Source: Mycoplasmoidaceae bacterium
GTDB lineage: Bacteria > Bacillota_I > Bacilli_A > Mycoplasmatales > Mycoplasmoidaceae
Assembly: GCA_045641165.1 (NCBI GenBank)
Contig: JAZUGL010000009.1
Coordinates: 12,845-76,844, forward strand
Length of the DNA: 64,000 bases
Reading direction: 5' to 3'
The notes below the pieces were generated by a model that was not told the DNA's origin, did no database searches, and saw only the letters and a list, made by a program, of their open reading frames with translations. Made by a program: the position numbers and the translations under genes. This document shows positions 4,353 to 54,280 of this stretch, piece by piece (the stretch's first letter is position 1; each line of letters begins with the position of its first letter).

Positions 4353-5200
4353 TACTTAACCTTTTTGTTGGCAACCACGGCGTTGTAAATTAAAGATGCT
4401 TGAACACCACTTGTGATAGAAACTTCTTTGCAAGCTTTTTTTAAATTTAAACCATTTTTAACCATTTGGTTAACTTCTTTAATAAGATCTTTTAGATTGT
4501 AATCGTGTTTTTTTACTTGTTGTTTGTTAACAACAATAACAAACTCTCCTCTTTCATCAATCTCATTTATGATTTCATCATATCTGCCACGATAAATTGT
4601 TTCGTTAAGTTTTGTTAACTCACGACAAACTACTATATATGGATCATTAAAAATATCTTTAATATCTTTTAGTGATTCTTTTATACGATAAACAGATTCA
4701 AAGAAAATAATGGGCACGTTAATATTTATTAGTTGTTTAAGTCTTTCTTTTCTTTGACTACCACTATGTGGTAAAAAGCCATTAAAGTAAAAGTTGTTTA
4801 AATTTAAACCAGACGCAACAGCTGAGTGAATAATAGAACTTGGTCCGTTTAACACTTCAACAGCAATACCTTGTTCATAGCACTTATTAACAAGTGCATA
4901 TCCTGGGTCTGAAACGCATGGATAACCAGCGTCAGAAACTAAAATAGTTTTTTTGTTTTTAATTTTATTAAGTGCTAAGTCAACTTTTTGTTTTTCATTA
5001 AATTTTTGGTAACTAATTAATTCTTTGTTATGAATGTCTAACTTAGCAAGTAACTTACTAGTTACTCTTGTGTCTTCACATAAAATGCACTCGCATTCCT
5101 TTAGAGCTTTTATTGCTCTAAAAGTTAATTCCTCCAGGTTTCCTATCGGTGTAGCCAAAATTTGTAATTTCAGTTTTGCTTGAGCGACTTTAACTAGCAT
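4352..5200 (-). CDS. rsmI: 16S rRNA (cytidine1402-2'-O)-methyltransferase RsmI
   Basis: N-terminal LATPIGNLEELTFRA and SDAGYPCVSDPG motifs of the tetrapyrrole-methylase-fold RsmI family. Confidence 0.85.
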   Translation of the reverse strand: MLVKVAQAKLKLQILATPIGNLEELTFRAIKALKECECILCEDTRVTSKLLAKLDIHNKELISYQKFNEKQKVDLALNKIKNKKTILVSDAGYPCVSDPGYALVNKCYEQGIAVEVLNGPSSIIHSAVASGLNLNNFYFNGFLPHSGSQRKERLKQLININVPIIFFESVYRIKESLKDIKDIFNDPYIVVCRELTKLNETIYRGRYDEIINEIDERGEFVIVVNKQQVKKHDYNLKDLIKEVNQMVKNGLNLKKACKEVSITSGVQASLIYNAVVANKKVK

Positions 5201-5261
5201 AACATTTAATATTATTTTATAATATTAACACTATAAATTATTAAATATTGGAGCCTTATAT

Positions 5262-5567
5262 ATGAACTTTCAAGCAATGGCTGCTCAAGCTCAAAAACTT
5301 CAAAAAGAGATTCAAAAAAAGCAAGAGGAATTCTATAAAAAAGAATTCGAGGTTGATTATAAGAACGGCTCTATAGTTATTACTATACTAGGTGATGGAA
5401 CAATTAAAGGAATGAAAATTAATCCTACTTTAATTGATCCAAAGGATCCTATTATGCTTGAGGAAATGGTTTCTGAAGCTGTAAATAATGCTACTACTTT
5501 AGTAAAAGAACAATTAGATGAAATAACTAACTCTATGATGCCTTCAGGCATGGGTGGTTTGTTTTAA
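5262..5567 (+). CDS. ybaB: Nucleoid-associated protein YbaB/EbfC
   Basis: 101 aa with the conserved pattern AQKLQKE...GGLF, directly upstream of recR as in most bacteria. Confidence 0.85.
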   Translation: MNFQAMAAQAQKLQKEIQKKQEEFYKKEFEVDYKNGSIVITILGDGTIKGMKINPTLIDPKDPIMLEEMVSEAVNNATTLVKEQLDEITNSMMPSGMGGLF

Positions 5568-6166
5568 TGAAACCAAGAGAATTTGAATATCTTGTTGATG
5601 CAATCAAATCTCTTCCGTCTATAGGTGCTAAGGCGGCAGAACGGATAGCTTTTTATTTAATAAAACAAGATGATAAATACATCCATGAGTTTGTCGATAG
5701 AATAACTAAGGCTAAGGCTAATATCCACTATTGCAAACAATGCGGTAACTTTGCTGTCGATGAACTTTGTCCTATATGTGCTAATAATGCTAGAGACAAT
5801 GCAAAACTTTGCATTGTTAACACCATTGATGAACTGAATAAAATAGAATCTACTGGATGTTTTGATGGTATTTATTTTGTTTTGAACGACGAAATTAACA
5901 TCAAGACAAAAACCAACCTAGATTCTGGAATCATTAATAAATTAATGAACTATTGTTTAAAAAAGAACTTCAAAGAAGTTATTATTGCAACCAACTTTAC
6001 AATTAATGGTGAAGCAACAAATATTTATTTAAATAAATTAATCAAGTCTGTTCTTCCTAGTTGTATTACATACAAGCTTGCTATAGGTTTGCCGGTTAAT
6101 TCTGCTCTTGACTATGCAGATGAATACACTTTAAAGTATGCTTTAAAGAACAAGACTAGAATTTAA
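5567..6166 (+). CDS. recR: Recombination protein RecR
   Basis: N-terminal helix-hairpin-helix (LPSIGAKAAERIAFYL), a C4 zinc finger (CKQCGN...CPIC) and a Toprim region. Confidence 0.9.
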   Translation: MKPREFEYLVDAIKSLPSIGAKAAERIAFYLIKQDDKYIHEFVDRITKAKANIHYCKQCGNFAVDELCPICANNARDNAKLCIVNTIDELNKIESTGCFDGIYFVLNDEINIKTKTNLDSGIINKLMNYCLKKNFKEVIIATNFTINGEATNIYLNKLIKSVLPSCITYKLAIGLPVNSALDYADEYTLKYALKNKTRI

Positions 6167-6167
6167 A

Positions 6168-6245
6168 AAGCACCACACACACGCTTTAACTTAGTGCTGC
6201 TCTATTTCTAGCCTGACACGATTTGTACCACGTGTTGTGATGCTT
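6168..6245 (-). terminator. Long imperfect hairpin in the convergent recR/dnaG gap. Probable dnaG terminator.
   Basis: aagcaccacacacacg (6168..6183) pairs with cgtgttgtgatgctt (6231..6245), about 14 bp with one mismatch and one bulge. On the minus strand the hairpin is followed by TTTTT. Confidence 0.35.
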
Positions 6246-6257
6246 AAATATTATATA

Positions 6258-8171
6258 TTATTTGGAAAACCTATGAGCTTTGCTACTAGCAAACTCTCTA
6301 ATGTCTTGTCTAATTTTATTTAAGCTTATTTCTAATTTCTTTTTTTCTGCATCTGATAATTTAGAATTATTAAGTTGTTTTAATATTCTGTTCTTTTCAA
6401 TGACATTACAATAGTAATCGATGTGTTGTATTTGAATCTTAACACTAGACTTGCTTATCTTTAAAGGTAAATTACTTGATAATCTTACCTTTTGCTCGTC
6501 AACTAATTTTATTAGTGCTTTGGAACCTGCATCAGAAATCTTTTTGTTTTGAAACAATTGCACAATTGTTTTTTCTACAATGTCTAGATGTTGTTTTTCA
6601 TCAAGACTTTCTAAAGAAAGTGTTTTTATTAAATATAAATAATCATTAATGATTGGGTGATTACTTTCTTTGTGAACTAAGTTATCATAAACTGTTTCAG
6701 CTAAAGATGGTTGATAAACAACTGATTTCATCAAGTTGTTGAACGCATCAATTAAATTTTTGTAAATTGGATCTTTAATACTTGGCTTAGGAGTTTTGGT
6801 TTTGTTTCAGTCATAGTTTCTATTAGCTACAAACCTATTAGAACTTATTCTTCTATAAGAAGAGTTTATGTCTTCTAAATCTAGGTTTGTAAGTTTAGCG
6901 ATTAGAGTGGAATATTGCTTTCATTGTAATGGATTACCAAACTTGCTTATCAAAGCTAATACTTCTTCAACTAATGAATTGATGTTTGTGGTGTTAATGT
7001 TTACTAATCTTTTACTAATATAGTAAGAAATGAAATTTTGTTTGTTTGGGTCAAGCAATAAGTCCAAAACTTTTTGTTTAGATTCTTTTACCATAATTTC
7101 ATTAACATCTTTATATTTGGTGTTGTTATTAACTACAACCACATTCAAACCCGTTTTCAAAAATTGCAAACCATTAGTAATGGTGCTTTTAGCACCAGCT
7201 TCATCATTATCAAATCATAAAACTATATTTTTAATAAATCCAGAATTGGAAATCATCTTAATGTGGTTTTGTGTTAGAGCTGTTCCCATTAAAGCAACTG
7301 CACCAAACTTTGTTTCATCCATACCTGATTCGTATAAAGAAATTAGATCAATGTTTCCCTCTAACACTATTAGTGTTTCTGGTTTGTCCATAAACACTCT
7401 ATCCATGTTATATAAAGTGTTTGATTTGCTAAACAAACTTGTTTCTCTTGAACTTAAATACTTAAGTTCAGAATTTAAATTCATGTCTCTAGCAATAAAG
7501 CCGGTGATAAAACCGTTTTTGTCTTTAATTGGAAAAGTAATTCTGTTGTAAAAATAATCAGTTACTTCAAAAGTCTTTTCATTAATGTTTATTAATGAAG
7601 TCTTTAATAAATCATCTTCATTTCATTGAGCGTTAGGGTTTACATTTTTATTAGCAAGCAAATCATAACAAATTTGTTTTTCATTGTTTTTGCCGCAAAA
7701 ACCTATTTCAAATTTTTTAATAATTTCTGGTGATAGCCTCCTATCAAGAAGATATTGTAAATACTTCTTGTTGTCGTCATCAAATAATAATTGTTTGAAT
7801 AATTCATTAGCTTCTGAGTTAAGAGTAAATAATCTTCAGTTTGTTTGAGAATAGTTTTTATTTTGTCTGTTAAAGTATTCATTAACAGCATCTTGACTAA
7901 AACCAGCTAACTTAGCGGCTTCTTTTATGGCTTCGCCATAAGATATCTTTTTATAACGTTGCAAAAAGGTAATAACGTTTCCACTAGCGCCGCATGAGAA
8001 ACATTTAAAAATCTTTTTCTTGGGTGAAACAGACATTGAAGGGTTTGAGTCAGGATGAAAAGGACATAAACCAAAATAGTTGGCACCAGATTTATGTAAA
8101 GATACAAACTTGCCAATGATATCTACGATATCTGCCCTATTAATAATTTCTTCAACTAAGTTCATTGCCAT
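6258..8171 (-). CDS. dnaG: DNA primase DnaG
   Basis: Zinc-ribbon N-terminus (CPFHPDSNPSMSVSPKKKIFKCFSCGASGN) and a Toprim core (LIVLEGNIDLISL, WFDNDEAG). Fragments 7836..8171, 7215..7484, 6921..7169 and 6258..6734 are all in one frame, interrupted only by TGA. Confidence 0.9.
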
Positions 8172-8185
8172 AGGTCTTCATTTAG

Positions 8186-9559
8186 TTATCTACATAAAAA
8201 TTTGAAAATGTCAGAAATTTTTATTCTTTCTTGTTTCATTGTGTCTCTATTTCTAATAGTTACACAATTATCTTTTAGACTGTCAAAGTCATATGTAATA
8301 CAGTAATAAGTACCGATTGCATCTTGTCTTCTGTATCTTTTACCTATAGAACCAGTTGTATCATATACAGCAGGTATGTGATGTGCAATTAAACTATCAA
8401 AAACTTTTTTAGCTTCATTGTTTAGTTTAGGACTTAATGGTAATACAGCAGCCTTGTATGGACAAAGATTGTAATCTAATGTTAATACTTCTCTAGTTTC
8501 ACCATCTTTAAGATTTTCAATCTTATAGTTGTCACAAATAATAGCATAGAAAAGTCTTTCTACACCAACTGATGGTTCTATAACAAATGGAATAAACCTT
8601 TTGTTTGTTTCAGGATCAAGATATGCTAGTGTTGAACCAGAAATATTTTCATGATTTTTCAAATCAAAGTCTGTTCTATTAGCTAAACCTCATAATTCTG
8701 CTCAACCGTGTGGGAAGTTATATTGAAAGTCAACTGTTCTAGCAGAATAGTGACTTAATTCATCTTTGTCGTGTTCTCTTAATTTAATGTTTCCACTTTT
8801 AAGTTTCAAAACATTGGTTAAGAAATTTCGGATAGACTTAACATATTCTTCAAATTTTTCTGCTGCTTTGTTTGGATAAACAAAGTGTTCTATTTCCATT
8901 TGTTCAAACTCTCTAGTTCTAAAAATAAAGTTTCCTGGTGTAATCTCATTTCTAAAAGCTTTTCCAATTTGGCCAACACCAAAAGGAACTTTTAATCTTA
9001 ATGCTCTTTGAATATTAGCAAAGTTAATAAAAATACCTTGGGCTGTTTCTGGTCTTAAATACAATTGGTTGCTTTTATCTTCGATAACAGATTGAGATGT
9101 TTTAAACATTAAATTAAAACTTCTAATGTTTGTTCAATCAAATTTACCACAATTAGGACATTTAATTTTTTTATCTTTAATTATTTTTAATAGTTCATCT
9201 TGTGATGTATTTTCAGATATCTTAATATCTGGATATTGTGCTTCAATAAGTTTATCGGCTCTAAATCTTTGTTTACATGATTTGCAATCAATTAATGGGT
9301 CAGCAAAATTAGTAAGATGTCCAGAAGCTTTTCAAACAGAAGGATTTAAAAGTATAGATGAATCTAAGCCAACCATTGATGGTTGAGAAGTAATAAAGTA
9401 ATTTCATCATAAAGATTTAATGTTATTTTTTAAGGCAACACCTAGTGGTCCATAGTCTCAAGCGTTAGCTAGACCACCATATATTTCAGAACTAGCAAAA
9501 ACAAAACCATAGTTTTTAAGATAATTTACAATTGTTGTTTGATCAAGTTTATTTGCCAT
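8186..9559 (-). CDS. glyQS: Glycine--tRNA ligase (class II, alpha2 type)
   Basis: N-terminus [40 protein letters not shown] plus class II motifs. Same-frame fragments are joined through TGA codons. Total length is 1374 nt, a multiple of 3. Confidence 0.9.
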
Positions 9560-27519: not shown

Positions 27520-28113
27520 ATGAAAGATTTTATTGTAGAAACTAGTGCTAGACACGTTCATGTAACGCAAGAAACCTTAGAAGTTCTTTTTGGTGCAGGC
27601 GCTAAACTAAATGCTAAGAAAATGTTATCACAACCAGGTGAATTTGCTAGTGATAGTAAAGTAGATTTAGTTGGACCGGTTAATCCAAAAACAGGAAAAA
27701 ATACTATGTTAAAAGGTGTTTCTATTCTTGGCCCAGTTAGGGATCACAACCAAGTTGAAGTATCTGCTACTGATGCAAGAAGTTTAAAAGTTCCTGTAAT
27801 GATTAGAGAATCAGGACATATTCAAGGTTCAGCACCAATTACTATTATCGGCCCTGCTGGTAAAGTAGATTTAAAAGAGGGTTTAATTGTGGCTAAAAGA
27901 CATATTCATATGACTCCACAAGATGCTCAAGAAATGGGAGTTAACAATGGTGATGTTGTTAATGTGGAAGTTAATACTCAAGATAGAAAATTAATTTTTG
28001 GTGATACTGTTGTTAGAGTTAAACCAACCTATAAATTAGCAATGCATATTGATACAGATGAATCAAATGCTGCAAATTGCTCTGGCCAAGTAATGGGTCA
28101 TATAGTTAAATAA
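27520..28113 (+). CDS. pduL: PduL-type phosphate acyltransferase (phosphate propanoyl/acetyltransferase)
   Basis: The duplicated PduL signature is present (ETSARHVHV... and AKRHIHMTP...). The ATG at 27520 follows a TAGGAGAG SD. The track's upstream TTG start is less likely. Confidence 0.75.
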   Translation: MKDFIVETSARHVHVTQETLEVLFGAGAKLNAKKMLSQPGEFASDSKVDLVGPVNPKTGKNTMLKGVSILGPVRDHNQVEVSATDARSLKVPVMIRESGHIQGSAPITIIGPAGKVDLKEGLIVAKRHIHMTPQDAQEMGVNNGDVVNVEVNTQDRKLIFGDTVVRVKPTYKLAMHIDTDESNAANCSGQVMGHIVK

Positions 28114-28133: not shown

Positions 28134-29615
28134 TTATTTTTTAATTTCTTGCGTTGAAATATATGAAGCGGCTTGTTCAGTTATATTTACACCAAGCTTT
28201 TTAAATACTTGTTGTTCTGCTTGCATCAATATACAACTAGAGTGTGCTTCCGCCCCTCTTAATAATGGTAATTGTTTCAAAGCTATAGCAGCTAGCGGAT
28301 TAGTTAAAGATTGAATAGCTAAAGCTATTAAAGCTTCAGAAAGATTTAATCTTCCTTTATAACCAAATGAATCGTGTTTCATTTTTTTAATAGGATCCAA
28401 AACATATGGAGACATTAAATAAATATCATCTTTAATCTTTCCTAAAGTTTTTAAAGCATTAATAATTGCTGCAGCGGAAGCAGTTAAATCATTAGATTTG
28501 CGCCCTGTAACAATTAATCCTTTTCTAATTTCAATTGCAACAGCATGTGTTTTTGCTTTAGCTTGTCTGTCTAAACATGCTTTAACACACGTTCTGTTTT
28601 CTGCTTTAACACCAGCATCATGCATTAAATATTCTGCTTTTGTAACAATAGAATCATCATATTTCCCTAAGAATACATCTTTTAAAGCATGATAGTATCT
28701 TCTAACAATTTCATATCTTGCTGCTTCTTGGCAAACTTTATCATTAACTATAGCAAAACCAACTTTATTAACCCCCATGTCTGTTGGTGAGTGATATGGA
28801 CTACGTCCATATAATTTTTCAAAAATTGCTTTTAGCAACGGAAAACTTGCAATATCTCTGTTGTAATTTGTTGCGGTTGTTTTATAGTGCTTTAAATGAT
28901 ATGGATCAATCATATTTCCATCATTTAATTCTAATGTAGCTGCTTCATAAGCAATATTTACTGGATGTTTAAGTGGCAAATTCCAAACAGGGAATGTTTC
29001 GTATTTAGCATAACCAGCTTTTTTACCTTTTAAATGCTCATGATATAGTTGACTTAAACAAGTAGCCATTTTTCCCGAACCCGGTCCTGGTGCAGTAACA
29101 ATAACTAATTTCTTATGTGTTTCTACATATTGGTTTTTACCTAAACCGTCTTTAGACATAATCTTAGGTAAATCCGAAGGATAACCTTCAATTTTATAAT
29201 GCTTGTAAACTTTAACATTTAAGTGTTTTAACAAACGAACAAACTCTTTTGTTTGTTGTGATTCTTCATACATTGAAACAACAACACCACAAATATGAAT
29301 ACCTATTGTTGTATAAACACCAATTAATCTTTCAACTTCGGCTTGATAAGATAAATTAGAATCTCCTCTAGCCTTGTTATTAACAAGGTCTTGAGCGTTT
29401 ACAACAATAATAACTTCTGCGTCTTTTTTAAATTCAAGTAATAGTTTAAGTTTGGAGTCAGCATCAAATCCAGGCAAAACTCTTGCAGCATGAAAATCAT
29501 CAATTAGTTTGCCACCAAATTCTAGATAAAGTTTGGAATTAAATTTTTTGATTCTATCTAGAATCGCCTTTTTTTGGATTTTTAAATATTTCTTAGTGTC
29601 TACTCCAACCTTCAT
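28134..29615 (-). CDS. UPF0371/DUF1846 family protein (function unknown)
   Basis: 493 aa uninterrupted ORF. The N-terminus (YLKIQKKAILDRI...LYLEFGGKLIDDFHAARVLPGFD) matches my recollection of the Firmicutes UPF0371 family. Confidence 0.6.
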   Translation of the reverse strand: MKVGVDTKKYLKIQKKAILDRIKKFNSKLYLEFGGKLIDDFHAARVLPGFDADSKLKLLLEFKKDAEVIIVVNAQDLVNNKARGDSNLSYQAEVERLIGVYTTIGIHICGVVVSMYEESQQTKEFVRLLKHLNVKVYKHYKIEGYPSDLPKIMSKDGLGKNQYVETHKKLVIVTAPGPGSGKMATCLSQLYHEHLKGKKAGYAKYETFPVWNLPLKHPVNIAYEAATLELNDGNMIDPYHLKHYKTTATNYNRDIASFPLLKAIFEKLYGRSPYHSPTDMGVNKVGFAIVNDKVCQEAARYEIVRRYYHALKDVFLGKYDDSIVTKAEYLMHDAGVKAENRTCVKACLDRQAKAKTHAVAIEIRKGLIVTGRKSNDLTASAAAIINALKTLGKIKDDIYLMSPYVLDPIKKMKHDSFGYKGRLNLSEALIALAIQSLTNPLAAIALKQLPLLRGAEAHSSCILMQAEQQVFKKLGVNITEQAASYISTQEIKK

Positions 29616-29659: not shown

Positions 29660-30376
29660 TTATTTAACTAAACCAATTTCTCTTAAAACTTTGTCAACTA
29701 CTTCCATTGTTTGTTCTACTTCTTTATCAGTAACATCAATGATTGTGTATGGTATTCTGTATGCTGAACAAATATTAGTTAAATATTGAATGTAACCAGT
29801 ATTTAGTAATCTAAAATATGTTTCGTTTTTCTTGAAGTTTTTAATTTCAACAGCTCTGTTTCTTTTATAAAGTCTTTCTAGGAATTTTTCTCAAGTGATA
29901 GATAAAATGAAATACATTTTAGGTGTTCCAACATTATAAATAAGTTCGTTAACTTGATCTCTTCAAAGCTTTTCATAATATTCATAAACTGTTGGTTGAC
30001 TTAATAAGTTATGGAAAGCAAAAAGTCTATCTTCAAAAATAGTTCTATCGTAAACTTTTGTTACTTCGGGGTTTCTAGTTAATCCTTCTTTATATTTTTT
30101 ATGTCTATCAAGTAGGAATTGCAATTGACAAACACTTTCAGCAATCACTTCTCTTTGATACATTTTGTCTAACAAAATGTTCATCAAATCTTCTGGATCG
30201 TTAGAAAGTTCATAAACTGGTTCAAACTTGTATCTTTTAACTATCGCTTCAACAATAGTAGACTTGCCGGCAGAAATCATACCACCAACAGCAATACAGT
30301 TGGCTTCTTTTTGTTTTTTGTAATCTTTAAGTAAGCAACGCTCTTCAAAACGTTTTTGATAGTCTTCGTTTGCCAT
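29660..30376 (-). CDS. Deoxynucleoside kinase (dAK/dGK family)
   Basis: P-loop GGMISAGKST, ERS-like DRTIFEDRLF and LID-region arginines. Two TGA read-throughs. 717 nt in frame. Confidence 0.8.
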
Positions 30377-31640: not shown

Positions 31641-32314
31641 TGATTAGAGGAAAAAAATACGCTGCTTCTGCTAAATTAGTAGATAGATCTAAATTTTATA
31701 GTGTTAATGATGCTGTAGAATTAGCAAAGAAAACTAGTACCACTAAATTTGATGCAGGAATTGATATTGCTATCAAATTAAATCTTGATACAACAAAAGC
31801 TGATCAACAATTAAGAGGAACAATTGCTTTGCCTCATTACTTTGGTAAACAAATTAGAATAGTAGCTATTTGTGATACTATTTCTGATGCAGATGCTAAG
31901 AAATTGGGAATTAAGGTTGGAACAACTGACTTAATTAATGAAATTAAGGGTGGTTGATTAGATTTTGATCTAATCATTACTACACCAAAATTCATGCCAC
32001 CATTATCTAGATTAGGTAAGGTTTTGGGACCAAAAGGCTTAATGCCTAACCCTAAATTGGGAACAGTTACTGCTAACCCATTAGCTGCTGTAAAAGAATT
32101 TAAACAAGGTAAATACAATTACCGTACTGACACATATGGAAACATTCATATGAAAATAGGTAAGGTTTCAGCTCCAACTAAAGATGTTGTAGAAAATATT
32201 AATGCTTTATTAGATTTCATTAAGTCTAAACGCCCGGCCACTGTTAAGGGAGATTACATTCAAAACATTTCTATCTCCTCAACAATGGGACCAAGTATTA
32301 AGATAATTAAATAG
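31640..32314 (+). CDS. rplA: 50S ribosomal protein L1
   Basis: Two same-frame fragments joined by TGA at 31955. Conserved L1 motifs (LGPKGLMPNPKLGTVT). Confidence 0.9.
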
Positions 32315-32337
32315 CGAGCAAATCGCTATTTTTTTTA
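32311..32337 (+). terminator. Rho-independent terminator after rplA
   Basis: atagcga-gcaaa-tcgctat followed by T8. Confidence 0.8.
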
Positions 32338-32411
32338 TGTTTTAGAAGACAAATGTTTAAAATAAATTACATTTATTTTAAATCTTTTATATTTCTATAT
32401 AATATTTTTTA

Positions 32412-32975
32412 ATGAAGCTTATAGTTGGTTTGGGAAATATTGGTGAAGCATATAAAAACACGAGACATAACGTGGGTTTTTTAGCTCTCGATGCAGTCTT
32501 AAAAGATTTAAATTTACAAATTGAAAACCACGATTATGATGGTGATTTAGTTGTAGCAAACATTAATGATCAAAAAGTTATGTTTATTAAACCAACCACT
32601 TTAATGAATCTTTCTGGCAAGTGTGTTGCAGCAGCAGCTAGATTCTACAAAATTAAACCAGAAGACATTATTGTAATTCATGATGATTTAGATTTACCTG
32701 TTGGCGAATTTAAAATCAGAACCTCTGGTTCTGCTGGTGGACATAATGGTTTAAAATCTATCATAAGTTGTTTGGGAAATGACAACTTTGTTAGATTTAA
32801 AATTGGTATTAGTCATCCAACAGACAAAGATGTTATTGGGCATGTGTTAGGCAAGATATCTTCACAAGAAATGAAATTATTAAAAAAACCAATTGATAAA
32901 TGTATTGAATTTATTAAATTGTCTTTATGTTGTCCTATTAATCAAGCAATTAGCAAAGTAAACCAAGAGAGGTAA
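32412..32975 (+). CDS. pth: Peptidyl-tRNA hydrolase
   Basis: LIVGLGNIG..Y..TRHNVGF and GSAGGHNGLKSI motifs. Confidence 0.9.
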   Translation: MKLIVGLGNIGEAYKNTRHNVGFLALDAVLKDLNLQIENHDYDGDLVVANINDQKVMFIKPTTLMNLSGKCVAAAARFYKIKPEDIIVIHDDLDLPVGEFKIRTSGSAGGHNGLKSIISCLGNDNFVRFKIGISHPTDKDVIGHVLGKISSQEMKLLKKPIDKCIEFIKLSLCCPINQAISKVNQER

Positions 32976-32980
32976 CTTTT

Positions 32981-34924
32981 ATGTTTGTTATCAAGAGAGA
33001 TGGAAGAAAAGTTAAGTTCAGTGAAAAGAAAATTCATGATGCATTAATTGCTGCTGCTATTGGTAATAATGTTGCTTTATCTCAAGAAGAAATTGAAAAA
33101 ATAACAGCTAAAGTTCTTAAGTGTATTGACGAAAAACACGAAGAAGAAGTACATGTTGAAGAAATTCAAGACTATGTTGTTGCTTCTTTAAGTGAACTTG
33201 GCTATATCAAACTTTCTAAGCAATACTCTGCATATAGAAAAGAAAGAAGTAAGGCAAGAGAGCGTGGTAGTAAATTAATGGAAACAGTTTACAAGATTGG
33301 TGTTGAAACAGATAGAGACAACGCCAATGTTGGAAACAACTTCTCAGCTAAGTTATTAAGAATTGCTTCTGAAGCAAATAAATGACATATGCTTCTAAAG
33401 CATCTACCATCTGAAATTGCTGAAAAACATGAATCTGGTGATTATTATATTCACGACCTTGATAGTTATAATTTAGCAACAAATTGTTTGCATTTACCTA
33501 CAAGAAAACTTTTAACAGAAGGGTTCAACCCAGGATATGGAACAATAAACCCACCAACAACAATTGAAACAGCTGCTTCAATTTTGTGTGTTGCTTTGCA
33601 AGCAAGCCAAAATGATATGTTTGGTGGACAATCTCATCCTAATTTTGACAACGACATTGCTATTACTATTCCTAGCACAAGAAAAAAAATTATTGCTGAT
33701 ATTAAAATGTCTGGTGGTAATTGAAAAGACAAAAAAATTGTAGATAAAATTTTAAAAAGAAGAGTACACCAAGCTATGCAAGAAGTTGTTTACAACTTAA
33801 ATACTCTTCACTCAAGAGCCGGAAGCCAAGTTCCTTTTAGTTCTATTAATATCGGTGTTCCTGAAAATAAAGATGCTGCATTGGTGTGTGAATGTTTCTT
33901 AGAAGAATATGAAAAGGGTTTAGGAAAGGGAGAACAACCAATTTTCCCAAATATTATCTTTAGAGTTAAGGCCGGAGTTAATAGAGACCCTAAAGATAAA
34001 TATTTCTATTTATTCAAGCTAGCGTGTAGGGTGGCTTCAAAACGAATGAATCCAACATTTATGAATTTAGATGCTACCTTTAATAAAAAGTACTATGACA
34101 TGGGTGTTTTGCCAGCCACTATGGGTTGTAGAACATATTTGTTGCCCGACATTAATGGTGTGCCAAGAGTTGAGGGAAGAGGAAACAATGCTCCTGTAAC
34201 AATGAATTTACCTAGATTAGCTATGCTAGCTAATAAAAACCTTGAAACATTCTTTAACTCTCTTGACAAATTGTGCGAAGATTGTAAAGATCAATTATTA
34301 CACAGATATTCAACATTAAAGAAGTTAAAAGTAAAGGATATGCCTTTTGTTTGCGGTGAAGGTTTAATTTATGGAACAGCAGGTTTAAAAAGAACTGATT
34401 CTATAGAACCAATATTAAAACATGGAACTTGGGGTATAGGATTCATTGGTTTAGCTGAAACACTTAAGTTGTTAGTTGGCAAACACCATGGAGAATCTCA
34501 AGAAGCAAGAGAATTGGGTTACACTATTGTAAAAAGAATTAGAGACAATTGCGATAAGTTTAAAAATAAATATAAACTTAACTTTAGTTGCTATGCAACT
34601 CCTGCTGAAGGTTTGAGTGGAAAATTCTTCCCATTAGATGAAGCCCAATTTGGAAAGATTGATTGAGTTACAACTAAAGGATATTACACAAATAGTTTTC
34701 ATGTTCCTGTAGATTATCCAATCTCTATTGCTAAAAAACTGGCAATTGAAGCACCATATCATGAACTATGTAATGCCGGACACATCTCATATGTTGAATT
34801 TGATAATTATCCAACACCAGAAGATGTGATGAATGTTATTACATATGCTTACACTAAAACAAATATCAACTATGTGGGAATTAACTTCCATATTAGATAT
34901 TGTTTAGATTGTAGAAACAATTAA
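32981..34924 (+). CDS. nrdD: Anaerobic ribonucleoside-triphosphate reductase (class III) large body. It lacks the C-terminal glycyl-radical segment.
   Basis: N-terminal ATP-cone (VIKRDGRKVKFSEKKI) and the class III core, across fragments 32981, 33389, 33776 and onward in one frame via TGA. It ends ...GINFHIRYCLDCRNN-TAA, directly after the first CxxC of the C-terminal zinc site. No G-Y-L radical motif is present. Confidence 0.85.
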
Positions 34925-34926
34925 CT

Positions 34927-35436
34927 ATGCAAATTAGATTAGCAGGAATATTACCAAACTCTAATGCCAATGGGCCAGGTTTGAGAAAAACTTTTTTCTC
35001 ACAAGGTTGTAGTCATGCTTGCCCTGATTGTTTCAATAAACACACTTGATCATTTTCGGGTGGTGCTTTAAAAGATTGTGATGAATTAATAAAAGAAACG
35101 CTAGAAGAATCATATCTAGCTGGCGTTACTTTTAGTGGTGGTGATCCTTTCGACCAACCAGAACCTTTTGCTTATTTAGCTAGAGCTTTTAAAAAAGCAA
35201 ATATTAATATTTGATCTTATACAGGTTATACATGAGAACAATTAATTAAATTGTCTAAAACAAACATTCATGTCAAGAGTTTGTTAAATAATATTGATGT
35301 CTTAGTTGATGGTCCTTTTATTAAGAAAAAATTCTCTGATCAAATTGAATTTAGAGGTTCAACAAACCAAAGAATAATTGATGTGACTAAATCTTTAAAA
35401 GAAAATAAAGTTTGTGTTATTAAAAAATATAAATAA
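34927..35436 (+). CDS. nrdG: Anaerobic ribonucleotide reductase activating protein (radical SAM)
   Basis: Radical-SAM cluster CSHACPDCFN, a GGDP motif and 169 aa length. Three TGA read-throughs in one frame from the ATG at 34927. Confidence 0.85.
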
Positions 35437-35506
35437 ATTGGTTTATGTTTGAATTACGAGAGTATAATTCAAACAAAGAAACTTTAAATAAAGAAAAGAA
35501 TTTGAA

Positions 35507-35707
35507 ATGGGAAAAGTAACATATTTAAAGCCTGGCGAAACTAAATGTCCTGTTTGTGGTTCTACACATATTTGCGAAATATCTAGAATCACAGGCTACT
35601 TATCTTTTGATGAAAGATTTTGTGAATCAAAAACTAAAGAAAGATCTTCAAGGGTTGACCACAATAATCTACATGAAGAAAACTACACAAAACAGATTAA
35701 AGCTTAA
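35507..35707 (+). CDS. 66-aa stand-alone NrdD C-terminal module (second zinc-ribbon Cys pair plus glycyl-radical motif)
   Basis: MGKVTYLKPGETKCPVCGS...SRITGYLSFDERF...KERSSRVDH matches the canonical NrdD C-terminus (CPxCG ... RxxGYL ... K.E...R..H). An in-frame TAA lies 18 nt upstream, so it cannot be fused to nrdG. Confidence 0.7.
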   Translation: MGKVTYLKPGETKCPVCGSTHICEISRITGYLSFDERFCESKTKERSSRVDHNNLHEENYTKQIKA

Positions 35708-35714
35708 TTAAAAA

Positions 35715-35737
35715 ACACCCATAGGGTGTTTTTTTTA
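35715..35737. terminator. Bidirectional rho-independent terminator
   Basis: acaccc-ata-gggtgt flanked by A6 and T8. It sits between the nrd cluster (+) and the convergent membrane-protein gene (-). Confidence 0.8.
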
Positions 35738-35738
35738 T

Positions 35739-36947
35739 TTAAATTGTTGGGTCTGGTGTAAAGAAGTCGTCAGGCATACCAGGATATAAGAATATGATGC
35801 TTATGATGTCTTTCATACAGTTTTTAACATCATCTGGGTTAACATCGGTTGCTTTAATTTCAATTAAATCATAAAAGAAATCTGTAAAGCTGTTAAATCC
35901 TTCTTCAGTAATAGTAATTTGGTTTAGATCTCCTATTTTTATACCACCTATTTCCCCAGTTGCTTCATATTCAGCCACCAAATCTTGCATTGTGGTAATT
36001 GGATCTTCATCAACAATTTCAAATGTTTGTTCTGGCATCATTTGTTTTACTAAGTCGATAGCATTAGGTGAAGAGAAAAGGCCACTGATTTCGTTTGGAT
36101 AGTCTTCCACTAGGGTGTTTCATGTTAGAACTAAATCTTCAACCGCTTCGCCGGCTTGTTCTTTAGTTTCAGAAGAAATATTTTCCATAATTGTTTGAAT
36201 TTCAGAAGGAACTGTGGTTTCAATGTAATTAAGTAGAGTTCCACCACCAGGCACAGTAACATTTATTAGTGCTAACGCACTAAATAAAGCATCGAAGTCA
36301 TAACAAGTTTGGGGTGAATAAGCTAGTCAAGAGAATGGTCCTGTACTTATGTTTAATAAACCGTTGTATAGGCCACTAGAGAACCCATTTTTAGCTCTTG
36401 TAGAGGCAGATGTTGTTCCATTATAAATAACTTGAGTAAAAGCCATTGTAGTAGGAAGAGTTAAAATTCCTAATAAAGCAGCACCTCCAAGTTTGTTACC
36501 AACCTTATAGCCAACTGTATCAGCTTTTTTGTTTACTTTAGCGTATTGTTTAACCATACCGTTTTTAGTTTTAACTTGAATCTTTTTTAAACCAACCACT
36601 TTCTTATATCAAGCGTAGTAGTTGATAAGTAAGATTAATTCGCTTACAGCCATAAATAAGATAAATCAAACCGGTGATATAACTGAAGCAATTAATTGGT
36701 CGGTTACTGTTAGTCCTTGTACTAATGAGCTTAATAGGTTGGTAATCATTGGTTTAAGCGCAGCTGCTATAGCGTTGCCTGCTAATACTCAAATAATTAA
36801 ACCTAATATATAGAAGATAAAGTTTCCCCCACCTCAATATGCTGCTCTTTTTCAACCAGCTAATACTCCTATTAAAGGAAAAGCAACAACTAATATTACA
36901 AATATTACTGGTGCAACTATTGCTAAACTTTCTATTGGATAATTCAT
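35739..36947 (-). CDS. Hypothetical membrane protein (402 aa) with an N-terminal multi-TM region and an acidic C-terminal soluble domain
   Basis: I verified codon by codon that the frame is continuous from the ATG at 36947 (AAGGAG SD) to the stop at 35739, with about 7 in-frame TGA codons. It merges track ORFs 36327..36599 and 35739..36110. Confidence 0.6.
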
Positions 36948-36959
36948 ATGTTCTCCTTA

Positions 36960-37583
36960 TTATTGTGATTTTTTAACTTTAGGCAAATAAGCTGTCCTTT
37001 CTCTTAAATGAGAATGACATTTTCTACATTTTGCAGAATATTCTTTTTTGTCTCCAATTATTATATTGTTTTTTGCGTCTCTCTTACCTGTATGATCAGA
37101 AAAGGCTGCATTAGCTCCGCATTCCATGCATATAGCTTTTAGTTTAGTTACTCTTTCGGCAGTAGCTAATAACTTAGCTATTTGATCAAAAGGTTTGCCA
37201 AATGAGTCCATGTCAAGACCAGCAACCATAACAATGTATCCGTTGTTGGCTAAGTGATTACATACATCACATAACTCATCATCAAAGAATTGTGCTTCGT
37301 CAATAGCAATTAATTGAATATGTTTGTTAGATTTGTTAATATGTTCAATGATTTCTCTAGATTGATAAACAGTAATAGTAGAAATGATTCTTCCATCTCT
37401 ACTTTTAGCAATCTTAGCTCCTGAACGCGTGTCAGCGGCTGGAGTAAATACTAAATACTCAACTTCAGAATATTTAAGAAGATTTATTCTTCTTAATAAT
37501 TCTTCAGATTTGCCTGAGAACATTGGTCCGCAGATAACTTCTATCCATCCTCTTTGTATATTAAACGCATTAATTTTTGGCAT
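36960..37583 (-). CDS. tdk: Thymidine kinase
   Basis: P-loop GPMFSGKSEEL, IDEAQFF, and a C-terminal zinc site (CMECG...CRKCH). Confidence 0.9.
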   Translation of the reverse strand: MPKINAFNIQRGWIEVICGPMFSGKSEELLRRINLLKYSEVEYLVFTPAADTRSGAKIAKSRDGRIISTITVYQSREIIEHINKSNKHIQLIAIDEAQFFDDELCDVCNHLANNGYIVMVAGLDMDSFGKPFDQIAKLLATAERVTKLKAICMECGANAAFSDHTGKRDAKNNIIIGDKKEYSAKCRKCHSHLRERTAYLPKVKKSQ

Positions 37584-53098: not shown

Positions 53099-54280
53099 TT
53101 ATTTATCTGTGTAATTTTTAAAATAGTTTTGAATTAAGATAACAGGAGTTCCTTTGTCACCACTGCCAGATGTTAAATCTGACAAACTACCCAATAAATC
53201 CGTTAATTGTCTTGGTGTTGTACCCAAAGAATTATCCTTGCCAACAAGATTTTTATCTTTATTTTTGATGTTAGAAGATATTTCTTTTAACATCTTATTT
53301 TTATCATTTTGGTACTTTGAGTTATCAATATACATTTTTAGTTTTAATTCATTAGGAGTACCAATTAAACCATCAGTGTATCCTGGGGAAACAACAGGGT
53401 CAGATAATTCTCAAATTTTGCCAACTGGATCTTTAAACGCACCATCACCATAAACCATTACTTCAATTTTTATGCCAGTAGCTTTTTTAATCATTGTTTG
53501 AACTTTTTTAACAAAGTTAAAGCAATCCCTAGGGAAAAGTTTTAGTTTTGTTTCTGTAGCGAAATTTGAACCAAGTACACCATAATCTTTATTAAAACCA
53601 GAACCCTTATTAGGTTTTGTTAGAATATCACTTAACAATGTTACTTTCGCACTTGGGCACTTTTTAAGAATAACAGCTTTTGTAATAAAACGTTCGTGGA
53701 TATTTGACACAACTATATTTTTTGTGTATCTTAATAATTCTGTAGGATTATTACTAAGAATTATTTCACACTTTTTGCCAACAGTTTTTTTGTATAAGTC
53801 TATATAGTCTATTCCTGTAAATTCGTGTCTAATTACGGGGAAGATTTTTCTAAACTCTTTTTCTGTATAGCATTTTCCCATATCAACATTTTTGTTAAAA
53901 ATGTCTTGCTTTGAAACAAAATGGTTTCCAGTTTCATCATCAGGAAAATTAAATTGGATATAAACCTTTTTAGCGTTTTTTGTTATTCCCTTAAGAATAT
54001 TTAAAAACCTATTTCTTGATGTTGTTGGCATACAAACACCAATTGTTTCATTACCATATTTTTTATAAATACAGTCAGCTATATCATTAACTGTAACATA
54101 GTTACCTTGTGTTCTTGCAAGTATGGATTCAGTAATAGCCAAAACATCTTTAGTTTGTAATTTAATTTTTTTAGTTTTATGAAGGAGAATTACTTTTTTA
54201 CTTACAATACTTGCTAAATCATCGCCTTCTTGCAAAAGAGGCATCACAAGGCCTCTTGCTATAACACCAAAATCTTTCAT
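53099..54280 (-). CDS. F420-0:gamma-glutamyl ligase (CofE/PF01996)-like family protein
   Basis: 393 aa after joining 53411..54280 and 53099..53335 (same frame, one TGA). GDGAFKDP and C-terminal SGSGDKGTPVILI resemble CofE-family motifs as I recall them. Confidence 0.4.

Follow-up and report, generated by a model that had tools for sequence, protein, structure and literature searches.

A split NrdD in Mycoplasmoidaceae: a likely two-chain class III ribonucleotide reductase with its glycyl-radical domain on a separate small protein

Can the glycyl radical of a class III (anaerobic) ribonucleotide reductase (RNR) be carried by a polypeptide other than the catalytic chain? The question is raised by a locus in a stretch of 64,000 nucleotides (nt) from a mycoplasma-like gut bacterium of the family Mycoplasmoidaceae (GenBank assembly GCA_045641165.1, contig JAZUGL010000009.1), hereafter the window. 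In this locus nrdD, the gene of the catalytic subunit, ends ahead of the radical motif; nrdG, the gene of the activase, comes next, and a detached small open reading frame (ORF) encodes the remainder. We call the 647-amino-acid (aa) NrdD chain the body and the 66-aa product of the small ORF the module. An earlier reading of the letters alone (the original prediction) had proposed a clean split of the enzyme rather than its decay. The swing of the buried radical domain of glycyl radical enzymes (GREs) out to the activase and back is a long-standing question that is hard to approach in a single chain, and with a separate 66-residue radical domain, each of activation, docking, radical transfer and oxygen damage could be titrated and studied on its own. 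From the evidence set out below, we consider it likely that the locus encodes a functional two-chain class III RNR.

NrdD is cut between the two knuckles of its zinc ribbon

We translated the region with genetic code 4 (TGA = Trp), under which nrdD is whole; the standard ORF list splits it at TGA codons. By translation and profile matches, the gene (32981..34924, plus strand, as are the features below unless stated otherwise) encodes 647 aa comprising an ATP-cone and the catalytic barrel. Its C-terminus reads ...GINFHIRYCLDCRNN before a TAA stop, 3 residues past the first zinc knuckle, Cys641-x2-Cys644 (34901..34912), which aligns with T4 C543/C546 and here forms the extreme C-terminus of the body. 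A gap of 2 nt separates the stop from the start of nrdG (34927..35436), the 169-aa product of which is a radical-SAM (S-adenosylmethionine) activase that matches Pfam Fer4_12 and Radical_SAM, scores 147.4 bits against the curated TIGR02491 cut-off of 126.1 and carries CxxxCxxC. After a spacer of exactly 70 nt (35437-35506) comes the module (35507..35707), recognized by TIGR02487 and Pfam NRDD, the full sequence of which is MGKVTYLKPGETKCPVCGSTHICEISRITGYLSFDERFCESKTKERSSRVDHNNLHEENYTKQIKA. It contains the inter-knuckle strand TYL, the second cysteine pair (CPVCGS), the RITGYL radical motif and an ER..R..H tail. Its knuckle, Cys14-Pro-Val-Cys17, lies at 35546..35557, and Gly30 of RITGYL, predicted to carry the radical, is encoded at 35594..35596; this glycine aligns with Gly711 of P. 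copri NrdD (PMC11226230). Since a stop codon lies in frame 5 codons 5' of the ATG, the module cannot extend further N-terminally. The end of the nrdD ORF just after the first CxxC, the start of nrdG 2 nt further on, the 70-nt spacer and the 66-aa ORF are all as originally predicted.

The two chains are complementary parts of one NrdD

An alignment of both products to NrdD profiles had been proposed as a check on the split, and in each of three profiles they proved complementary and contiguous. In TIGR02487 (581 positions) the body covers 2-534 (E 1e-157) and the module 535-581 (E 6e-11); in PRK07111 (746 positions) the body runs up to 695 and the module from 696 to 744; in Pfam NRDD (562 positions) they take 1-515 and 519-562. 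The body scores 525.9 bits against a TIGR02487 cut-off of 326.35 and 892.5 against a PRK07111 cut-off of 764, and Pfam places the ATP-cone on its residues 1-90 and NRDD on residues 113-645 (E 5e-160 for NRDD). Residues 5-61 of the module align without a gap, at 53% identity, with Clostridium P0046, the nearest fused enzyme, over its final 57 residues (647-703). Agreement of this order lies far beyond chance. On known structures, the body aligns with residues 20-547 of T4 NrdD and 9-687 of P. copri NrdD (8p23), and the module with residues 698-738 of the latter, RITGYL with Gly711 included. From these structure alignments, the cut separates one CxxC knuckle of the C-terminal zinc ribbon from the other and therefore lies within the glycyl-radical domain, which in P. 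copri NrdD starts after residue 676 (PMC11226230).

All four cysteines of the zinc site are present and conserved in the clade, two on the body (C641/C644) and two on the module (C14/C17). C169, C383 and N402 of the body align with C79, C290 and N311 of T4 NrdD (HMMER alignment to 1h78), so the active site of the body is intact. After Logan et al., we take C290 to be the finger-loop cysteine, C79 the second cysteine and N311 the active-site asparagine. The R-x-x-G-Y radical loop, in contrast, is missing from the 647-aa chain and found solely in the 66-aa ORF, which is the defining departure from NrdD. The original prediction thus holds: a separate polypeptide carries the radical glycine together with half of the zinc site, the four cysteine ligands and the motif are kept, and the body has no radical-glycine motif. 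The break is clean, at one residue boundary, with no sequence lost or duplicated, and the two chains jointly hold every element of a canonical NrdD.

Both chains are under purifying selection and are inherited together

In 81 aligned modules, C14, P15, C17, R27, G30, Y31, R37, F38, K42, E45, R49 and H52 are invariant. Across the short homologs, R-x-x-G-Y and E-R-x2-R-x2-H were each present in 149/149 sequences and CxxC in 148/149. The ratio of nonsynonymous to synonymous substitution rates (dN/dS; Nei-Gojobori, table 4, four genome pairs) was 0.083, 0.13, 0.13 and 0.073 for the module, 0.074, 0.090, 0.136 and 0.035 for the body in the same pairs, and 0.058, 0.16, 0.28 and 0.063 for nrdG. The module is under purifying selection comparable to that on the body. 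Furthermore, pairwise distances among bodies and among modules are correlated (r = 0.87, Mantel p = 0.001): the two co-evolve and are co-inherited. The cysteine pair of the body is conserved at its extreme C-terminus, where nothing but a shared zinc site would explain such conservation, and a zinc clasp held between the two chains is, on balance, the arrangement that we favor.

Further cysteines occur in both chains. In the module of the window, Cys23 (35573-35575) and Cys39 (35621-35623) stand at -7 and +9 of the radical glycine. Among 149 standalone modules, 26 have both, 6 have one and 117 have neither, a raw count across related sequences, and these positions are Q/G in 60/60 fused NrdDs. 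The two are a derived, co-varying pair, possibly a disulfide or extra metal ligands that would staple the radical hairpin. Five truncated bodies carry a second cysteine pair in their tail, e.g., ...CRECARRRNAEQIEKRQKQLCDC (L001 5920-5995; also P0037, P0040 and P0043), with which the body by itself might complete a four-cysteine site in some lineages.

The split is found throughout a mollicute clade

We considered the best 120 matches of a protein search with the body. About 57 are truncated NrdDs of 644-670 aa, which stop just past YCxxC with a variable tail of 2-22 aa; YCxxC is present in all the genuinely truncated ones, and those bearing names are mollicutes, Ca. Malacoplasma girerdii among them. 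A body protein identical to that of the window was recovered from a 148-kb NCBI contig. The nearest full-length NrdDs (702-706 aa) are clostridial, share 61-63% identity with the body, and run on as ...CGTYL-x6-CPxCGS...SRVTGYLSLDERF...; in the clostridial loci the fused nrdD is followed by nrdG. No fused mollicute-type NrdD was found among these 120 matches. In a neighbor-joining tree, a single bipartition separates 57 truncated from 62 fused Clostridium-type bodies, and identity within the split clade is as low as 60%. Judged from these sequences, the split is a clade-wide and ancient trait.

The module has a matching distribution. A search with a module profile retrieved 447 proteins at E <= 1; the best 120 consist almost entirely of standalone proteins, 55-108 aa long, from metagenome-assembled genomes (MAGs) of Mycoplasmataceae or Mycoplasmoidaceae. 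The standalone modules form more than 115 clusters at 90% identity, from NCBI, ENA, JGI and Logan sources, in which they are annotated as "hypothetical protein" or, automatically, as "ribonucleoside-triphosphate reductase". One cluster-mate has a name, Ca. Hennigella equi, of the family Mycoplasmoidaceae. The relatives that bear names are thus Mycoplasmoidaceae and not the Mycoplasmopsis and Metamycoplasma that the original prediction had in mind. The gene order that it proposed to look for, truncated nrdD, nrdG and module, was seen in L001-L003, L014, L018, L020 and L021, and it is broken by insertions in two other relatives, and in girerdii no module lies near nrdD. In L022 (3134-4384, minus strand) an unrelated 416-aa gene, and in L023 (5491-7662) an unrelated 723-aa gene, stands between nrdG and an intact module, the bodies being 79% and 73% identical to that of the window, respectively. 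In L023 the module abuts a thymidine kinase gene, and a pyruvate formate-lyase (PFL) gene lies upstream. The module is an autonomous gene, able to part from nrdG.

Observations that weigh against a two-chain enzyme

Several observations speak against the reading of the locus as a two-chain enzyme. Using regular expressions and an unfiltered hidden Markov model scan over ±4 kb around nrdD, we found no module this close to the gene in Ca. Malacoplasma girerdii (L015, CP007711), L016 (CP091280) or L017 (BTIC01000038), nor did any module from these genomes figure among the best 120 module-profile matches. Either their modules lie elsewhere or are unannotated, or their bodies work without one, which would weaken the model of an obligate partner. 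Purifying selection persists in these genomes (L015 versus L016: dN/dS of 0.11 for the body and 0.19 for nrdG). L017 also has no adjacent nrdG, and NrdG in girerdii-type genomes is a protein of 188-194 aa with a C-terminal extension. Upstream of nrdD, girerdii-type genomes have pheS-pheT-dCMP deaminase instead of the pth gene seen in the window. L018 shares this upstream arrangement, yet its module is present. Because the module is separable from nrdG in L022 and L023, relocation is the simplest reading for L015-L017.

The other points concern the window itself. Elsewhere in the genome, outside the 64 kb, a further, full-length NrdD may be encoded, or else a class I RNR; M. penetrans was reported to have both RNR classes, including class I (PMC8566771). 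The two extra cysteines of the window's sub-lineage, C23 and C39, might make the metal site intramolecular instead of shared. Finally, an AlphaFold2 (AF2) model of the module by itself has low confidence (predicted local distance difference test, pLDDT, 64; predicted template-modeling score, pTM, 0.25). A poor model of the lone module would fit a segment that folds only upon docking, and it proves nothing.

Decay, artefact, rejoining or a different partner

Could the locus be a dying gene? A nonsense mutation or a rearrangement would then have killed nrdD, the small ORF would be a leftover, and another RNR or nucleoside salvage would supply deoxynucleotides. Mollicutes are prone to gene loss, genes for a deoxynucleoside kinase and a thymidine kinase lie nearby, class I RNR is also present in M. 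penetrans (PMC8566771), and some relatives have no module close to nrdD. However, dozens of independent genomes, down to 60% identity, carry all three ORFs intact, the module has a dN/dS of 0.07-0.13 with similar values for the body and nrdG, the catalytic, zinc-ligand and radical-motif residues are all kept, and the break falls at one exact boundary with nothing lost. We regard decay as very unlikely; the original prediction, which had named a pseudogene as a possible refutation, is borne out in its choice of a clean split by this boundary, the clade-wide bipartition, purifying selection and co-evolution. An assembly or sequencing artefact, its other worry, might be suspected from a source that is probably a MAG or draft contig, but its probability is negligible since the architecture recurs in independent NCBI, ENA, JGI and Logan assemblies, closed genomes included. 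The parts might also be rejoined into one chain by a group I or II intron, a split intein or translational bypass, as group I introns and homing endonucleases are classic residents of phage nrdD (PMC2988022), which is fragmented in 95/104 Jug phage genomes (PMC12880540). Yet a permissive Rfam scan (E-value mode) of 32300-36200 revealed no intron family and no riboswitch, its best match (E 0.29) falling on the terminator, and between the parts there is only a complete nrdG, with 2 nt before it and 70 nt after it. The gene that intervenes in L022 lies on the opposite strand. The body tail is variable and 2-22 aa long, and only ~4 residues of the module precede the homologous region, too little space for intein halves; neither part matches Hint, intein, HNH, GIY-YIG or LAGLIDADG, and each has its own conserved stop or start. 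Rejoining is accordingly very improbable.

The module could instead serve another enzyme. As a spare part like GrcA/YfiD and T4 Y06I, which do so for PFL (PMC8683613), it would rescue a separate full-length NrdD, the truncated body being inactive or otherwise employed. Phage-like contigs do encode NrdD-type radical proteins that stand alone, with no body in the vicinity, and only 64 kb of the genome are visible here. This explanation, the least implausible of those weighed here but still improbable, has to face the fact that all 57 closest body homologs are truncated, with no fused mollicute-type NrdD surfacing among the best 120 matches, that the active site of the body is kept and the body is under purifying selection, that body and module co-evolve and usually share an operon with nrdG, and that what the body retains of the zinc site is precisely the half missing from the module. 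A role with a different GRE, for instance PFL, the gene of which lies beside the locus in L023, seems hardly credible: the module matches only NrdD profiles, apart from weak zinc-ribbon matches, with no PF01228 Gly_radical or GrcA match at E <= 0.1, and it bears the NrdD-specific zinc knuckle and the ER..R..H tail.

Standalone radical modules on phage-like contigs

We searched 1.84 billion representatives exhaustively with a profile and obtained 671 matches at E <= 0.001, the best 150 of which were considered. Many of the short matches outside mollicutes are plain fragments of full-length NrdD, and P0307, tried as a standalone case, was set aside as it sits on an uninformative contig of 517 nt. 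One locus, L027 (JGI 3300028610, 4732-8658), is a split nrdD on a 129-kb phage-like contig with Rad52, DnaB, primase and SSB genes. Its NrdD body has 657 aa and ends ...AECRQCGTLVRE, six residues past knuckle 1; then come four unrelated ORFs, a methyltransferase included, a 59-aa module and nrdG. This module, which starts MIVTEQKAIECPSCKS..., ten residues ahead of knuckle 2, and carries RITGYL, has 46% identity and belongs to a different NrdD subtype. A permissive Rfam scan found no intron at the locus, and there is no endonuclease signal. Because the subtype differs, the break between the knuckles arose twice.

A second group comprises standalone proteins of ~115-150 aa, a family in which three or four CxxC knuckles precede ...CPxCGSHDV.QISRVTGYL and the NrdD-type radical motif reads SRVTGYL..GWN.GK.QELKDR (P0303, P0365, P0394, P0403, P0406-P0408 and P0415). 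The gene of P0408 (L024/L025 6001-6348; Logan SRR31357140, 49-kb contig) lies within a phage-like array of small ORFs, and no NrdD body was found within 6 kb of it. By analogy with T4 Y06I for PFL, this family may supply host NrdD with a phage-borne spare part.

Transcription unit and neighboring genes

The window has a G+C content of 30.7%. Upstream of nrdD, a consensus scan found a terminator-like hairpin after rplA (32309..32331), the upstream edge of the transcription unit. It is followed by pth (peptidyl-tRNA hydrolase; 32412..32975, from the ORF list), which ends 5 nt upstream of nrdD and is probably co-transcribed with it. The next plus-strand terminator of the scan, a hairpin of intrinsic-terminator type with an 11-bp stem and a T-rich tail (35710..35734), lies 3 nt past the stop of the module, with none between nrdG and the module. 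Because terminators occur only before pth and 3 nt past the module, pth-nrdD-nrdG-module probably forms a single transcription unit in the window. We make no claim of an internal promoter for the module, as promoter-like matches were fewer than in shuffled sequence (18 versus 29.6). The spacer between nrdG and the module contains a stem-loop (35447..35474; 10-bp stem, 8-nt loop; RNA fold -11.8 kcal/mol, z -2.7), after which inspection of the sequence revealed no T-run. In L021, the closest relative, it is retained, with A:U replaced by G:C as a compensatory change (z -3.1), whereas it cannot be aligned in genomes further away. It could act in RNA processing or stability, or as an operator setting the module:body ratio.

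The pth-nrdD pair stands directly 3' of rplK-rplA in the window, and the pth-nrdD linkage is kept in L020, L022 and L023 (Pfam Pept_tRNA_hydro). Immediately 3' of the module and convergent with it, the minus strand encodes a predicted membrane protein of 402 aa (35739-36947) with no Pfam match. Nucleotide-salvage genes flank the RNR locus: one at 29660-30376 encodes a deoxynucleoside kinase (Pfam dNK), and one at 36960-37583 a thymidine kinase (called by eye and from the L023 annotation). The window also encodes a PduL-type phosphate propanoyltransferase (27520-28113), a DUF1846 protein (28134-29615) and an F420-0:gamma-glutamyl-ligase-like protein (53099-54280), the last being unusual for a mollicute.

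Discussion

The sequences show the split, its exact position and its conservation, together with selection on all three genes and co-inheritance of body and module; what we infer is that the module docks on the body, that the zinc site is shared, that activation occurs in trans and that the pair is active. In such an enzyme, the large chain would supply the ATP-cone, the alpha/beta barrel with the thiyl-radical cysteine and the first CxxC knuckle, and the small chain the rest of the glycyl-radical domain, i.e., the inter-knuckle strand, the CPxC knuckle, the RITGYL loop and the ER..R..H helix. One Zn2+ held by C641/C644 of the body and C14/C17 of the module would rebuild the ribbon and tether the module where the final barrel strand ends. 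NrdG with SAM would abstract a hydrogen from Gly30, on the free or the tethered module; the radical loop would then enter the barrel beside Cys383, and catalysis would proceed as in single-chain NrdD. What is known of P. copri NrdD lends this structural plausibility. The NrdD radical domain is mobile and must exit the barrel for activation, being invisible in dATP-bound P. copri NrdD, of which the part past residue 676 is largely a mobile rigid body able to leave the barrel (PMC11226230). For PFL, a separate small protein activated by the activase can complement a truncated enzyme (PMC8683613).

A detached module might, in addition, be exchangeable. NrdG would charge free modules, a charged one would clip to the barrel through the inter-chain zinc ribbon and, after oxygen cleavage at Gly30, a fresh module would take over, so that a cleaved module could be replaced without remaking the 647-aa body. 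This idea of a consumable radical subunit, the replacement part of which the original prediction had already raised, is tentative, and we think it rather doubtful. If it is true, class III RNR would be cheaply repairable in microaerobic animal-associated niches, the phage P0408 family (L024) would be true spare parts for host NrdD, and the GrcA principle would extend beyond formate lyases. Spare-part repair beyond PFL has been speculated upon in the field (PMC8683613), and a June 2026 review of GREs gives spare-part proteins as known only for formate lyases (PMC13450708); the locus makes this question directly testable.

The two-chain architecture, less conjectural than such an exchange, would surprise RNR and GRE specialists, although its chemistry is not new in kind, and a zinc ribbon made by two polypeptides would be a new kind of subunit clasp. 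In practical terms, hundreds of "hypothetical" mollicute proteins of 60-70 aa become nameable, and metabolic reconstructions should not count the truncated NrdDs found here as pseudogenes. In the literature that we searched, which does not include most subscription journals, mollicute nrdD and nrdG are mentioned only in PMC8566771, where NrdD and NrdG of M. penetrans are listed without comment. Within that same range we found no description of a split or truncated NrdD, which is not proof of novelty, and nothing on the ribonucleotide reductase of girerdii. A conserved two-piece arrangement does not appear to have been described previously for class III RNR, in agreement with the original prediction.

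How does the locus compare with known systems? The canonical NrdD/NrdG of T4, E. coli, P. copri and Clostridium has the same ATP-cone, barrel, active-site cysteines and asparagine, four-cysteine zinc site and RxxGY loop, and the same adjacent NrdG activase. The difference is that the chain of the window is cut between the knuckles of the zinc ribbon and that the radical domain is a separate 66-aa product encoded 3' of nrdG. GrcA/YfiD and T4 Y06I are likewise small standalone glycyl-radical proteins, presumed to be activated by the activase of the parent enzyme and to dock in trans (PMC8683613). They belong to a different GRE family, however: the module has no Pfam Gly_radical or GrcA match, and it carries half of a zinc site where GrcA has none. 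Moreover, GrcA occurs alongside a full-length PFL and comes into play only once oxygen cleavage has taken place, whereas the sole NrdD of the window, like all 57 bodies of the clade, has no radical domain. The likeness to GrcA drawn in the original prediction thus stands for a small standalone radical protein and fails for a spare part, since the module, serving a body with no radical domain of its own, looks obligatory.

Split catalytic subunits are known from other RNR classes. Class II NrdJa/NrdJb of Pseudomonas aeruginosa and the class Ia NrdA of Aeromonas phage Aeh1 are encoded as two ORFs, the products of which reassemble non-covalently (PMC9669993, PMC2988022), and the C-terminal piece of NrdJ includes a zinc-finger region (PMC9669993). 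As in those split RNRs, body and module jointly cover one canonical catalytic subunit without loss, their profile coordinates being contiguous; the class and the break site differ, and the likeness is architectural only. In Aeh1 the split is due to a homing endonuclease at the break, whereas in the window the interposed gene is that of the activase and the detached piece carries the radical cofactor. Phage nrdD is interrupted too, in T4 by a group I intron, and also in Jug jumbo phages, which have a 91-aa terminal nrdD fragment with no evidence of splicing (PMC12880540), and such interruptions are attributed to introns, inteins or endonucleases. This fragmentation has been described without a two-subunit model, and the case of the window differs from it in being cellular, clade-wide and ancient, with no signatures of mobile elements.

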